Virus record (IMG/VR): IMGVR_UViG_2713896781_000019
Direction: 5' to 3' (one strand)
Source of the DNA: a virus
Taxonomy: Duplodnaviria > Heunggongvirae > Uroviricota > Caudoviricetes
Length of the DNA: 4,820 bases
A model generated the notes under the pieces. The model had not been told where the DNA came from, searched no databases, and was given only the letters and a program-made list of their open reading frames with translations. Shown in pieces: positions 1 through 4,820 of this stretch. Positions within the stretch are counted from its first letter, which is position 1; every line of letters begins with the position of its first letter. The translations under genes and the position numbers were made by a program.

Positions 1-62
1 ACGATGATCTGGCAGCCTGAGTTCACAGATAAAACACTCTCCAGGAAAACCGGGGCGGTTCA
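1..62 (+). mobile_element. Right terminus of an IS3-family insertion sequence (IS629/IS1203-like), partial; the element continues beyond the window start
   Basis: Reverse complement of 38..62 reads TGAACCGCCCCGGTTTTCCTGGAGA, matching my recollection of the IS629 terminal inverted repeat (TG...CA ends typical of the IS3 family). Similarity to lambda O ends abruptly at position 63. Not verified by search. Confidence 0.7.
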
Positions 63-66
63 CTAA
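1..66 (+). CDS. C-terminal fragment of an IS3-family transposase (OrfB), 5' partial
   Basis: Frame 1 reads TMIWQPEFTDKTLSRKTGAVH then stop TAA at 64..66, running into the terminal inverted repeat as is common for IS3-family orfB. Assignment is from memory of IS629-like transposase C-termini. Confidence 0.45.
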   Translation, partial: TMIWQPEFTDKTLSRKTGAVH

Positions 67-289
67 GTTGAGAATCGGTGATTCTGTCCATTGGTTTATT
101 CCACCCATAGGTTTTACGCAGAATGGCAAGCAGCACTTTAAACTGTCGCTTGGTCAGATCTGCGCCTGAATAAGCCTCAAGCAGCATATTTGATAGTCTG
201 GCGTAACCATCATCGAGATCTGCCACATTACGCTCCTGTCCGGCAAAGTTACCTCTGCCGAAGTTGAGTATTTTTGCTGTATTTGTCAT
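63..289 (-). pseudogene. O: Lambda-type replication initiator O, truncated after codon 77 by the IS insertion
   Basis: Minus-strand ATG at 287..289. Translation MTNTAKILNFGRGNFAGQERNVADLDDGYARLSNMLLEAYSGADLTKRQFKVLLAILRKTYGWNKPMDRITDSQLSE matches lambda O N-terminus as I recall it. The remaining 11 codons of the 88-aa track ORF are read from IS DNA. The ori iterons and the P-interaction domain are absent. Confidence 0.85.
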
Positions 290-292
290 AAT
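264..292 (+). promoter_or_regulatory. pO promoter for oop RNA (-35 TTGAGT 264..269, 17-nt spacer, -10 CATAAT 287..292)
   Basis: Sigma70-like hexamers with 17-bp spacing on the plus strand, overlapping the O start codon, in the position of lambda pO. Confidence 0.5.
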
Positions 293-298
293 GACTCC

Positions 299-376
299 TG
301 TTGATAGTTCCAGTAATAACCTCAGAATTCCATCTGGATTTGTTCAGAACGCTCGGTTGCCGCCGGGCGTTTTTTA
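299..376 (+). ncRNA. oop: oop-like antisense RNA, complementary to the 3' end of cII mRNA
   Basis: About 77 nt between the pO -10 element and the to terminator, antisense to the cII 3' end, as in lambda. The 5' end is inferred, not mapped. Confidence 0.55.
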
Positions 377-615
377 TTGGTGAGAATCGAAGCAACTTGT
401 CGTGCCAATCGAGCCATGTCGTCGTCGACGACACCCCATTCAAGAACAGCAAGCAGCATTGAGAACTTTGGAATCCAATCCCTCTTCCACCTGCTGATCT
501 GCGACTTATCAACTCCCACAGCTTCCGCTGTCTTCTCAGTTCCAAGCATTGCGATTTTGTTAAGCAACGCACTCTCGATTCGTAGAGCCTCGTTGCGTTT
601 GTTTGCACGAACCAT
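322..615 (-). CDS. cII: Transcriptional activator CII (97 aa)
   Basis: Minus-strand ATG at 613..615, stop at 322..324. Translation MVRANKRNEALRIESALLNKIAMLGTEKTAEAVGVDKSQISRWKRDWIPKFSMLLAVLEWGVVDDDMARLARQVASILTNKKRPAATERSEQIQMEF is essentially lambda CII. The 117-aa track ORF is an upstream in-frame extension. Confidence 0.93.
   Translation of the reverse strand: MVRANKRNEALRIESALLNKIAMLGTEKTAEAVGVDKSQISRWKRDWIPKFSMLLAVLEWGVVDDDMARLARQVASILTNKKRPAATERSEQIQMEF
348..376 (+). terminator. Intrinsic terminator (to of oop)
   Basis: Stem AACGCTCGG (348..356) / CCGGGCGTT (363..371) with one mismatch, loop TTGCCG, followed by a T-run at 372..376. Confidence 0.7.
593..606 (+). promoter_or_regulatory. 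CII-binding site of pRE (TTGC-N6-TTGC flanking the -35 region), directing antisense-cro/cI establishment transcription
   Basis: TTGCGTTTGTTTGC on the plus strand, overlapping the first cII codons on the opposite strand, as in lambda pRE. Confidence 0.65.
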
Positions 616-694
616 ATGTAAGTATTTCCTTAGATAACAATTGATTGAATGTATGCAAATAAATGCATACACCATAGGTGTGGTTTATTTTGAT

Positions 695-726
695 GCCCTT
701 TTTCAGGGCTGGGATGTGTAAGAGCG
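695..726 (-). promoter_or_regulatory. nutR N-utilisation site (boxB 695..709, boxA 718..726)
   Basis: Minus strand reads boxA CGCTCTTAC and boxB hairpin GCCCTGAAAAAGGGC, the lambda nutR motifs, between cro and cII. The tR1/rut region would lie at about 616..694. Confidence 0.85.
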
Positions 727-734
727 GGAATGTC

Positions 735-2087
<1,353 letters not shown>

Positions 2088-2137
2088 TCCCCACCTCAAT
2101 CTCGATAACAAAAAAACAAACTATTTTCCGTTTAAAA

Positions 2138-2206
2138 ACAATGGAGTTTGTTTTTCACGTCCCTTTTTTACAATATTTCTTGTTTACAACATACAATCTT
2201 CCTTGT
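2138..2206. promoter_or_regulatory. Left operator OL3 (2138..2151), OL2 (2170..2183), OL1 (2193..2206)
   Basis: ACAATGGAGTTTGT, ACAATATTTCTTGT, ACAATCTTCCTTGT: three more 14-bp ACAA-N6-TTGT sites matching the 434 operator family. Confidence 0.85.
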
Positions 2207-2219
2207 AATTTTAAGCCAT
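2183..2219 (+). promoter_or_regulatory. pL early leftward promoter (-35 TTTACA 2183..2188, -10 TAATTT 2206..2211, start near 2218)
   Basis: Sigma70-like hexamers with 17-bp spacing overlapping OL1/OL2. The downstream leader ATCAGCAGGACGCACTGACCACC matches the lambda pL transcript start region from memory. Confidence 0.55.
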
Positions 2220-2251
2220 CAGCAGGACGCACTGACCACCATTGAAGGTGA

Positions 2252-2282
2252 GGCTCTTAAAAATTAAGCCCTGAAGAAGGGC
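2252..2282 (+). promoter_or_regulatory. nutL N-utilisation site (boxA-like GGCTCTTAA 2252..2260, boxB GCCCTGAAGAAGGGC 2268..2282)
   Basis: The boxB hairpin is identical to lambda nutL boxB. The boxA-like nonamer differs at its first base from CGCTCTTAA as I recall it. Confidence 0.85.
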
Positions 2283-2439
2283 AGCATTCAAAGCAGAAGG
2301 CTTTGGTGTGTGTGATACGAAACGAAGCATTGGCCGGAAGTGCGAATCCGGATTAGCTGCCAATGTGCCATTGCGGGGTGTTTTCGTTCAGGACTACGAC
2401 TCCCACACACAACCAAAGCTAACTGACAGGAGAATCCAG

Positions 2440-2763
2440 ATGGATGCACAAACACGCCGCCGCGAACGTCGCGCAGAGAAACAGGCTCAATGGAAAGCAG
2501 CAAATCCCCTGTTGGTTGGGGTAAGCGCTAAACCAGTTAACCGCCCTATTCTCTCGCTGAATCGCAAACCGAAATCACGAGTAGAAAGCGCACTGAATCC
2601 GATAGACCTTACGGTGCTGGCTGAATACCACGAACAGATTGAAAGCAACCTGCAACGTATTGAGCGCAAGAATCATCGAGTTTGGTATAGCAAGCCAGGT
2701 GAGTTCGGTATAACTTGTCAAGGAAGACAAAAGGTTAAAGGGGAATCCATTCCATTGGCATGA
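2440..2763 (+). CDS. N: Antitermination protein N (107 aa), lambda type with substitutions in the C-terminal half
   Basis: Translation MDAQTRRRERRAEKQAQWKAANPLLVGVSAKPVNRPILSLNRKPKSRVESALNPIDLTVLAEYHEQIESNLQRIERKNHRVWYSKPGEFGITCQGRQKVKGESIPLA. The arginine-rich boxB-binding motif is identical to lambda N as recalled. The track ORF start at 2308 is an in-frame upstream extension across nutL. Confidence 0.92.
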   Translation: MDAQTRRRERRAEKQAQWKAANPLLVGVSAKPVNRPILSLNRKPKSRVESALNPIDLTVLAEYHEQIESNLQRIERKNHRVWYSKPGEFGITCQGRQKVKGESIPLA

Positions 2764-2771
2764 GGTACGTA

Positions 2772-3641
2772 ATGAAGAAGATTGATTACAAGTCCATACC
2801 AAAACCAATAGACTCAGCATCAGAGCGAAAAAAACACAAAAAAGAGGCTGAAAAATTAGCAAATTATATCAGTTTTATTAGAAACAATGCTCACGGCGAT
2901 GGCGACAAGAAGTTGCTTTCAGATGCTCGGACCCAAGCGTTCGGTATACTTCGTAAGCAGATGCAATATCGTCTTCATCCTGGCTACATAATTGAAATTC
3001 GCCCTACTGAAAGACAATTGTTCTTATTAAACTCTGTCTTTGACTTTGTAAACGTAGTTGGAGATCTTATCGACAGGTCTGTAGATAAGGATCCTGATAC
3101 AAATAGTTTTCTTCTAACAAATAAAGAATACTTATATGGTAAATTCGGTATAAACGGATGGCAAAAATATGTACGCTTCTTACGTGCATTCGTTGATGCG
3201 TATAAAAATTCCGACATGATTTATACATATTTGCCTGGTGGTGATAATTGTACGCTTTCGGCAGACAATAGAATATTCATACCTGTACTTGGTCTTGGGC
3301 TGATTAATGCAGTAAATGAAAAAGATGTTATAATTGTTAAGCAGTGGCGAAAATATGAGGGATATAGATATCTGCCATGCTTTGATATATTAAAAATACA
3401 GAATAAATTCTATGTAAAAATTAAATATAAAGAAGATATTTTCTTCCTCAGAAAAAACAAAGATCTTTTACAAGAACTTTCTGGTACAATAGATGTCATC
3501 TTAGGTTCTAGGTTTATAAAAGAACTGAAAGAAAGCAGGTCTTTCTCTCGTGTAGAGATAAGCGAGTCAGAGTTATGGGGTATATCAAATAATCCTGTAA
3601 ACCACGCTCACCAACGAAACCCAAACAAAAAGTGGTCATAA
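2772..3641 (+). CDS. Hypothetical protein (289 aa from ATG 2772, or 293 aa from ATG 2760), strongly AT-rich, no recognisable domain; candidate accessory (moron) gene
   Basis: Long ORF with GAGG Shine-Dalgarno at 2763..2766 overlapping the N stop codon, ATG at 2772; the alternative ATG at 2760 overlaps the N stop as ATGA. GC is about 22-35% in sampled 60-nt lines versus about 50% in flanking phage DNA. The protein is Lys/Ile/Asn/Tyr/Phe-rich with no transmembrane segment, Walker A, HExxH or other motif I can recognise. Confidence 0.75.
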   Translation: MKKIDYKSIPKPIDSASERKKHKKEAEKLANYISFIRNNAHGDGDKKLLSDARTQAFGILRKQMQYRLHPGYIIEIRPTERQLFLLNSVFDFVNVVGDLIDRSVDKDPDTNSFLLTNKEYLYGKFGINGWQKYVRFLRAFVDAYKNSDMIYTYLPGGDNCTLSADNRIFIPVLGLGLINAVNEKDVIIVKQWRKYEGYRYLPCFDILKIQNKFYVKIKYKEDIFFLRKNKDLLQELSGTIDVILGSRFIKELKESRSFSRVEISESELWGISNNPVNHAHQRNPNKKWS

Positions 3642-3642
3642 C

Positions 3643-3664
3643 CCGCTCAGGCGGATTTCATTTT
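3643..3664 (+). terminator. Possible weak intrinsic terminator just after the AT-rich gene
   Basis: Short GC stem CCGC/GCGG with 4-nt loop followed by ATTTCATTTT. The stem is only 4 bp. Confidence 0.3.
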
Positions 3665-3693
3665 CACGCAAACAACAGAATAAACACAGCGCT

Positions 3694-3721
3694 GTGTATT
3701 CATTCCAACGAGTGAATACAC
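3694..3721. repeat. Perfect 9-bp inverted repeat GTGTATTCA-N10-TGAATACAC
   Basis: Arms at 3694..3702 and 3713..3721 are exact reverse complements, with no following T-run. Candidate protein-binding palindrome or RNA stem-loop. Confidence 0.6.
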
Positions 3722-3783
3722 GGAGCAATGTCGCTCGTAACTAAACAGGAGCCGACTTGTTCTGATTATTGGAAATCTTCTTT

Positions 3784-3809
3784 GCCCTCCAAGATGAGGG
3801 CGATTTTTT
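3784..3809 (+). terminator. Intrinsic terminator (GCCCTC-loop-GAGGGC plus T6)
   Basis: 6-bp GC-rich stem (3784..3789 / 3796..3801), 6-nt loop, then GATTTTTTAT. Lies about 20 nt upstream of the next ORF's ribosome-binding site, positionally like a tL1-type terminator readable by N-modified polymerase. Confidence 0.65.
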
Positions 3810-3829
3810 ATCTGTGAGGATATGAACAG

Positions 3830-4057
3830 ATGTCAAACATCAAAAAATACATCATTGATTACGACTGGAAAGCATCAATAGAAATTGAAATCGACCATGA
3901 CGTAATGACAGAGGAAAAACTTCACCAGATTAATAATTTCTGGTCAGACTCTGAATACCGACTCAATAAACACGGCTCTGTATTAAATGCTGTATTAATC
4001 ATGCTGGCGCAACATGCTCTGCTTATAGCAATTTCAAGCGACTTAAATGCATGGTAA
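3830..4057 (+). pseudogene. Hypothetical gene interrupted by IS1; only the N-terminal 74 codons are native, the last sense codon and the stop are supplied by IS1
   Basis: ATG at 3830 preceded by GAGGA (3816..3820). The ORF runs straight into the IS1 inverted repeat, which begins at 4053; TAA at 4055..4057 lies inside IS1. Low GC (about 36%). No recognisable homology. Confidence 0.55.
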
Positions 4058-4067
4058 TGACTCCAAC

Positions 4068-4571
4068 TTATTGATAGTGTTTTATGTTCAGATAATGCCC
4101 GATGACTTTGTCATGCAGCTCCACCGATTTTGAGAACGACAGCGACTTCCGTCCCAGCCGTGCCAGGTGCTGCCTCAGATTCAGGTTATGCCGCTCAATT
4201 CGCTGCGTATATCGCTTGCTGATTACGTGCAGCTTTCCCTTCAGGCGGGATTCATACAGCGGCCAGCCATCCGTCATCCATATCACCACGTCAAAGGGTG
4301 ACAGCAGGCTCATAAGACGCCCCAGCGTCGCCATAGTGCGTTCACCGAATACGTGCGCAACAACCATCTTCCGGAGCCTGTCATACGCGTAAAACAGCCA
4401 GCGCTGGCGCGATTTAGCCCCGACATAGCCCCACTGTTCGTCCATTTCCGCGCAGACGATGACGTCACTGCCCTGCTGTATGCGCGAGGTTACCGACTGC
4501 GGCCTGAGTTTTTTAAATGGCGGAAAATCGTGTTGAGGCCAACGCCCATAATGCGGGCGGTTGCCCGGCAT
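4068..4571 (-). CDS. insB: IS1 InsB reading frame (expressed as InsAB' transposase by -1 frameshift)
   Basis: 167-aa ORF with ...[21 protein letters not shown]...[15 protein letters not shown]..., typical IS1 InsB. It overlaps the insA 3' end in the -1 frame, with the slippery run TTTAAAAAAC on the minus strand. Confidence 0.88.
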
Positions 4572-4765
4572 CCAACGCCATTCATGGCCATATCAATGAT
4601 TTTCTGGTGCGTACCGGGTTGAGAAGCGGTGTAAGTGAACTGCAGTTGCCATGTTTTACGGCAGTGAGAGCAGAGATAGCGCTGATGTCCGGCAGTGCTT
4701 TTGCCGTTACGCACCACCCCGTCAGTAGCTGAACAGGAGGGACAGCTGATAGAAACAGAAGCCAC
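4490..4765 (-). CDS. insA: IS1 InsA (91 aa)
   Basis: Translation [91 protein letters not shown], with zinc-finger and HTH regions typical of IS1 InsA; GTG start. Confidence 0.92.
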
Positions 4766-4820
4766 TGGAGCACCTCAAAAACACCATCATACACTAAATC
4801 AGTAAGTTGGCAGCATCACC

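Follow-up and report, generated by a model that had tools for sequence, protein, structure and literature searches.

IS1 in the early gene ea10 of a 434-type Escherichia coli prophage: very probably a simple insertion and a neutral lesion

Introduction

The window analyzed here, a stretch of 4,820 nucleotides of viral DNA, contains near its end a short ORF of low GC content that runs directly into an insertion sequence. The locus raises the question of what gene was interrupted and what the interruption cost. The original prediction, made from the sequence alone, placed the ORF at 3830 second in a cargo module of low GC content, possibly the immunity or regulatory partner of the 289-aa protein encoded upstream, with the pair inactivated by IS1 and the missing part of the module either displaced beyond the element or deleted. 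The identity of the ORF, the sequence on the far side of IS1 and the distribution of the two genes among phages and E. coli genomes are reported here.

Results

Identification of the ORF at 3830 as ea10

The features of the window are listed in Table 1. The ORF at 3830 matched Pfam family DUF2528 (PF10800) with a score of 83.2 bits (cut-off 22, E = 2.2e-23) over profile positions 1-57 of 104, and its native residues were identical to lambda Ea10 at 74 of 74 positions. Because of this match and identity the ORF is judged to be a genuine gene fragment, and a chance ORF is excluded. The full-length ea10 of phage 434 scored 160.6 bits over profile positions 1-104, the native ea10 DNA in the window was 100% identical to that of phage 434, and the intact gene comprises 369 nt encoding 122 aa in both 434 and lambda. 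The comparisons identify the ORF as ea10, a backbone early-left gene of lambdoid phages including lambda, 434 and the Stx phages. A position directly upstream of cIII-kil-gam-bet-exo in the pL operon was found for ea10 in phages 434, lambda and VT2-Sakai, in three E. coli prophages and in UASG01000011.1, a 1-Mb E. coli contig (hereafter L002) identical to the window at 4819 of 4820 bases.

Both ends of the ORF were as originally described. The good ribosome-binding site ascribed to it corresponds to a GAGG located 10 nt upstream of the ATG, and its GC content of 35.9% is indeed low like that of the upstream neighbor (34.6%), the remaining phage genes in the window having 42-49%. The predicted run of 74 native codons into the IS1 repeat, which provides the last sense codon and the stop, was likewise read in the sequence. 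In codon 75, TGG (4052-4054), the T at 4052 is native and the GG is derived from the IS1 repeat, while the TAA (4055-4057) belongs wholly to IS1. A homologue search returned 118 proteins from Escherichia, Salmonella, Klebsiella, Serratia and other genera. Intact homologues do not end near 75 aa, the full-length members having 121-127 aa with a conserved C-terminal block, and the interpretation of the ORF as truncated thus stands. Since it ends at residue 75, the window ORF is classified by its sequence as a disrupted member of DUF2528, a pseudogene allele, and not as an intact member.

Table 1. Coordinates of features in and immediately beyond the window, with strand and basis of assignment.
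Feature	Position	Strand	Basis or remark
IS629 end	1-62		within replication gene O
O, N-terminal 88-codon remnant	23-289	-	434 annotation
cII	322-615	-	434 annotation
cro	735-950	-	434 annotation
cI of 434	1054-1686	+	434 annotation
hex	1683-2087	+	434 annotation
N	2440-2763	+	434 annotation
289-aa gene of phage 434, "Nun C-terminal peptide-containing protein", variable-slot gene	2772-3641	+	434 annotation, PHROG 12139
Lambda-type leader of ea10 (lambda ral-ea10 intergenic region)	3670-3829	+	three-way alignment with lambda and VT2-Sakai
Intrinsic terminator separating ea10 from the 289-aa gene, counterpart of lambda tL2a	3782-3811 (hairpin 3782-3803)	+	
Shine-Dalgarno GAGG of ea10	3816-3819	+	sequence reading; ribosome-binding site annotated at the matching phage 434 position
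Chimeric 75-codon ORF: ea10 codons 1-74, then Trp and stop from the IS1 inverted repeat	3830-4057	+	ORF list, sequence reading, comparison with intact 434 ea10
Native 5' portion of ea10 (DUF2528): codons 1-74 and the initial base of codon 75, out of 122 codons	3830-4052	+	
Target-site duplication TAAATGCAT, 9 bp, left copy	4044-4052	.	L002 sequence (L002 10215-10223)
Target-site duplication TAAATGCAT, right copy	L002 10992-11000		just outside the window
Complete IS1, 768 bp	4053-4820	-	inverted repeats; NCBIfam transpos_IS1
IS1 terminal inverted repeats, 23 nt, imperfect, 78% complementary	4053-4075 and 4798-4820		
insB'	4068-4571	-	NCBIfam NF033558 transpos_IS1
insA	4490-4765	-	NCBIfam NF033558 transpos_IS1
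A6C frameshift (slippery) motif, GTTTTTT on the plus strand	~4508-4514		sequence reading

The prophage and its other lesions

Positions 60-4052 of the window showed 99.9% identity to phage 434 (OL657226) in BLAST comparison. Within the phage part (63-4052) the window departs from 434 only in the oL region between 2160 and 2179, by a 1-base insertion and two substitutions, one of which (at 2179) falls inside the annotated oL2 CI-binding site. The start of hex overlaps the stop codon of cI (ATGA), and the 434 annotation describes hex as protecting the repressor from RecA-dependent cleavage. Hex had no Pfam match and belongs to PHROG 2651, of unknown function.

The IS629 element interrupting O was recovered whole in L002, where it shares 99.5% identity with an annotated IS629 copy and is flanked by a 3-bp CTA duplication. 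Copies of IS629 in L002 are located at 4924-6233 and 15009-16318, the second between the exo-xis region and int. A closely related prophage is present in E. coli O145:H28 strain RM12761 (NZ_CP007133.1, 788.7-812 kb; locus L009). It occupies the same ybhC site with 99.9% identical flanks, encodes the same 289-aa protein and likewise has an IS629-like element whose junction with O falls on the same nucleotide. It differs in having its IS629-like copy in the opposite orientation, at only 95% identity and with a loss of ~0.6 kb of O at the far end, in carrying an extra insert of ~3.4 kb in the nin region, and in its intact ea10.

The gene lpxR, encoding a lipid A deacylase, was observed as a moron between a ninI-like phosphatase gene and ylcG-Q (L002 1-419; L009 21413-22372), and the lpxR-ninG segment was present in 1530 of 5426 E. 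coli genomes, 431 of which had it at a coverage of 80% or above. The abutment of lpxR and the ninI-like gene in L002 had suggested loss of Q and the late genes. This was rejected on finding lpxR before ylcG-Q within the RM12761 prophage, which retains Q and further genes beyond lpxR.

The IS1 element and its insertion

The element bears the three hallmarks of the IS1 family, namely a length of ~768 bp with ~23-bp imperfect repeats, the insA/insB' arrangement and a 9-bp target duplication. The IS1 gene called in L002 matched the Pfam families Zn_ribbon_InsA, HTH_Tnp_IS1 and DDE_Tnp_IS1. As the window extends no further than the final base of IS1, the far side was read from L002, which carries a single mismatch to the window and for which the truncated ea10 product has already been deposited (SPX30444.1). 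In this contig IS1 is flanked on both sides by TAAATGCAT, after which ea10 resumes with codons 75-122 (48 codons), followed without deletion by cIII, kil, gam, bet, exo, xis, int and ybhC. Removal in silico of IS1 and one copy of TAAATGCAT from L002 restored the 122-aa ORF. An empty site with a single copy of TAAATGCAT was found in the RM12761 prophage, 99.9% identical and at the same ybhC-int locus. Both copies of TAAATGCAT and the uninterrupted remainder of ea10 in L002 indicate that this is a simple transposition of IS1 with the canonical 9-bp duplication, and that nothing was deleted.

An exact-protein look-up located the 75-aa product on five contigs. A search for the exact junction of ea10 and IS1 in 5426 complete E. 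coli genomes found no instance, and the GTDB representative genomes likewise gave no exact match. Its absence from the complete E. coli genomes indicates a rare, lineage-specific allele.

Lambda ea10 was scored as non-essential in a genome-wide CRISPRi screen (PMC10695390), (sieB-ea10) deletions are standard in viable lambda recombineering strains (PMC3961180), and the viable phages lambda 366 and 1390 carry IS10 in ea10 (PMC2327257). Since ea10 is non-essential, the pL operon is repressed in the lysogen and cI is intact here, the consequences of the insertion are probably slight. After induction, polarity of IS1 on cIII-kil-gam-bet-exo-xis-int would be expected. The element might have been fixed by selection because such polarity lowers expression of the toxic kil, and of the other pL genes, in a prophage unable to replicate, a proposal that would add to the simple insertion rather than replace it. 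It is consistent with the location of kil ~1.1 kb downstream of IS1 in L002, with IS629 in O of the same prophage and with the existence of a kil::IS2 lambda prophage, listed as a laboratory strain (PMC3961180). The occurrence of the junction on only five contigs and in none of the complete genomes gives no sign of repeated selection. N antitermination classically suppresses the polarity of insertion sequences in pL transcripts, and the N gene is intact in the window, which further argues against selection. On balance a selected insertion is unlikely.

The ability of IS1 to promote adjacent deletions is well known, and the window ends exactly at the end of the element. In the genome of the window the distal portion of ea10 and the genes behind it might have been deleted or relocated. 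Against such a deletion or rearrangement, L002 is the same as the window bar one base and contains both 9-bp copies and an unbroken continuation. A further contig (L003) is identical to the window over 1-4179 and then simply breaks inside IS1, as draft assemblies do at repeats. An IS1-mediated deletion is accordingly most improbable. The original prediction had left open whether the C-terminus and any further genes lay beyond IS1 or had been deleted; the continuation in L002 supports the first and contradicts the second. The target-site duplication, proposed at the outset as the means of telling the two apart, was present on both sides in L002 as befits a simple insertion, and the sequence past IS1 continued as ea10 codons 75-122 and then cIII onward.

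Relationship of ea10 to the upstream 289-aa gene

The case for a two-gene cargo module draws on the adjacency of ea10 and the 289-aa gene on the same strand, on the low GC content of both, and on the finding that ea10 lies downstream of the 289-aa gene wherever the latter was inspected. This dependence is one-way and positional. Of 5426 complete E. coli genomes, 2244 contained the segment comprising the ea10 leader and gene, as did 325 phage records, whereas the 289-aa gene was present in 117 of the same genomes (83 at a coverage of at least 80%) and in two phage records, both of phage 434. In most of its occurrences ea10 is thus unaccompanied by the 289-aa gene. The slot between N and ea10 is occupied by sieB/orf28/ral in lambda and by a small hypothetical gene (H0090) in VT2-Sakai, the 289-aa gene being found upstream of ea10 only in 434-type phages. 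The genes cIII-kil-gam-bet downstream of ea10 are constant, unlike the upstream neighbor.

The DNA between the two genes also separates them. A mosaic junction with the 289-aa module is located at approximately 3642-3670, homology to lambda and the Stx phages resuming ~28 bp past the stop codon of the 289-aa gene, and most phage matches begin at query position 29, which is window position 3670. The lambda-type leader begins there, differs little from the ral-ea10 intergenic region of lambda and includes an intrinsic terminator, the one observed in a terminator scan with 0.3 expected, which is also annotated in phage 434. The terminator stem is the same in the window, lambda and VT2-Sakai, and the loop is AAGA here, AGTG in lambda and AATG in VT2-Sakai. 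In lambda, tL2a forms the 3' end of LPR1, an Hfq-bound sRNA from the ral-ea10 region (bioRxiv 10.1101/2024.10.31.621285). A search of Rfam at gathering thresholds detected nothing in the window, and Rfam has no model for an LPR1-type leader.

A search with PADLOC (E <= 0.01) gave no match for Ea10, the 289-aa protein or Hex. Co-occurrence with the 289-aa gene, organization as one unit without a terminator, and similarity to defence systems were each looked for and none was found. The distribution of the two genes, the variable slot, the homology junction and the terminator place ea10 and the 289-aa gene in different mosaic modules, and ea10 is on these sequence comparisons no partner of the 289-aa gene. 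The postulated second cargo gene is instead read as backbone ea10, and there is no two-gene module to be inactivated by IS1. Conserved linkage of the two genes in other genomes, on which the original prediction had been made to depend, was absent given the variation of the slot among phages. An immunity or regulatory pair broken by IS1 is, in sum, highly improbable. Shared low GC content and adjacency are no evidence of a shared unit here.

The 289-aa protein had no match in Pfam, NCBIfam or PADLOC. The protein ends in 14 residues, VNHAHQRNPNKKWS, that also form the C-terminus of a Nun-like termination factor (mEp235), and the tail (window 3597-3641 region) matched PHROG 5632 with E = 5e-5. 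Every known determinant of RNA polymerase translocation arrest in Nun lies within its residues 87-109 (PMC5386594); of these residues H98, H100, R102, K106, K107 and W108 are present in the 289-aa protein and H93 and R94 are absent. Over its last 46 nt the 289-aa gene showed 95-100% DNA identity to further prophage genes of E. coli, a pattern suggestive of a recombination junction within the reading frame. The Nun tail is already mentioned in the 434 GenBank annotation. A full-text search found no papers linking Nun and phage 434, and neither Nun nor ea10 is named in the announcement of the 434 genome.

Predicted fold of Ea10 and effect of the truncation

Conserved residues of Ea10 are concentrated at positions 81-116 in the family alignment. 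Of the 28 positions that are invariant or nearly so, 13 lie beyond residue 74 and are lost from the window product (F81, E90, G91, W92, P93, M95, D96, G97, S98, G100, I101, I103 and D116). The most conserved block, EGWPPMDGSEGIKI, spans residues 90-103 (E90-G-W-P-x-M-D-G-S-x-G-I) and is encoded past IS1. An AlphaFold2 model of Ea10 (pLDDT 94.9) shows an N-terminal beta-hairpin and four helices followed by a strand at 101-107. This strand, the third of the predicted fold, completes the sheet and lies beyond the break. Without the conserved block at residues 90-103 and the strand at 101-107, the product consisting of Ea10 residues 1-74 and a Trp is almost certainly inactive. Retained or dominant-negative activity of the 75-aa fragment, which keeps the N-terminal beta-hairpin, three helices, the native ribosome-binding site and the leader, is scarcely to be expected of a protein that lacks the 13 conserved positions, the EGWPPMDG block among them, and the third strand.

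No sequence match to Ea10 was found in the PDB, and the model had no significant Foldseek match there; a search of BFVD with the model returned one unnamed viral relative only. Nothing beyond DUF2528 was found in Pfam and NCBIfam. Many ea10 records carry the label "Ssb". A role as a single-stranded-DNA-binding protein is not supported by the model, which has neither an OB-fold nor another known ssDNA-binding fold and no resemblance to SSB, and no supporting data for the label were found in the searchable literature. The model looks weakly SPFH-like, which is to be taken as a lead and not as a result. The gene invariably adjoins cIII, the gene of an FtsH inhibitor. Ea10 is an abundant early protein (PMC3961180), and its role has been described as "not fully understood" in a 2024 preprint (bioRxiv 10.1101/2024.10.31.621285).

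Discussion

The results are very probably explained by a simple insertion of IS1 into ea10 of a 434-type prophage, a neutral lesion and not a broken cargo module. The window would represent the early region of such a prophage of E. coli, integrated beside ybhC on the int side, with the gene order O'-cII-cro-cI-hex-N-289aa-ea10'. IS1 would have transposed into codon 75 of the 122-codon ea10 with the usual duplication of 9 bp of target and without deletion or rearrangement, the last 48 codons and cIII-kil-gam-bet-exo-xis-int lying directly past the element. A simple insertion predicts that the window's own genome continues past IS1 with TAAATGCAT and then ATGGTGTTGTG... The resulting product, Ea10 residues 1-74 with a terminal Trp, would be inactive. 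The insertion of IS629 into O would disable replication, and the prophage appears to be decaying and gathering insertion-sequence lesions. As ea10 is non-essential and the same prophage has IS629 in O, the insertion is read as one more neutral lesion.

Disruption of ea10 by IS1 is an ordinary event and already known, the allele of this classical phage gene having been deposited. An insertion sequence in a dispensable and long-known lambdoid gene is a textbook event of little importance. What is gained is the removal of a false lead, there being no disrupted cargo pair in the window; low GC content and adjacency did not in this case signal a shared module. Greater interest lies beside the finding, in the 289-aa protein of 434 with a Nun arrest peptide at its end and in the function of Ea10.

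The known counterparts of the interrupted gene are ea10 of lambda (lambdap45, P68658) and of 434 (CPT_434_47, UMO75311.1), assigned to Pfam DUF2528 and PHROG 646. The window shares with them the leader, the terminator, the ribosome-binding site and the slot upstream of cIII-kil-gam-bet, and differs from them in the presence of IS1 after codon 74 and in a product of 75 aa versus 122 aa. The insertion itself resembles ea10::IS10 of lambda 366 and 1390 and kil::IS2 of lambda, in which a transposable element likewise resides in a non-essential gene or operon transcribed from pL. Compared with those lambda insertions, the element is here IS1, the host DNA is a natural E. coli prophage of 434 immunity, and the target is marked by the 9-bp duplication TAAATGCAT.
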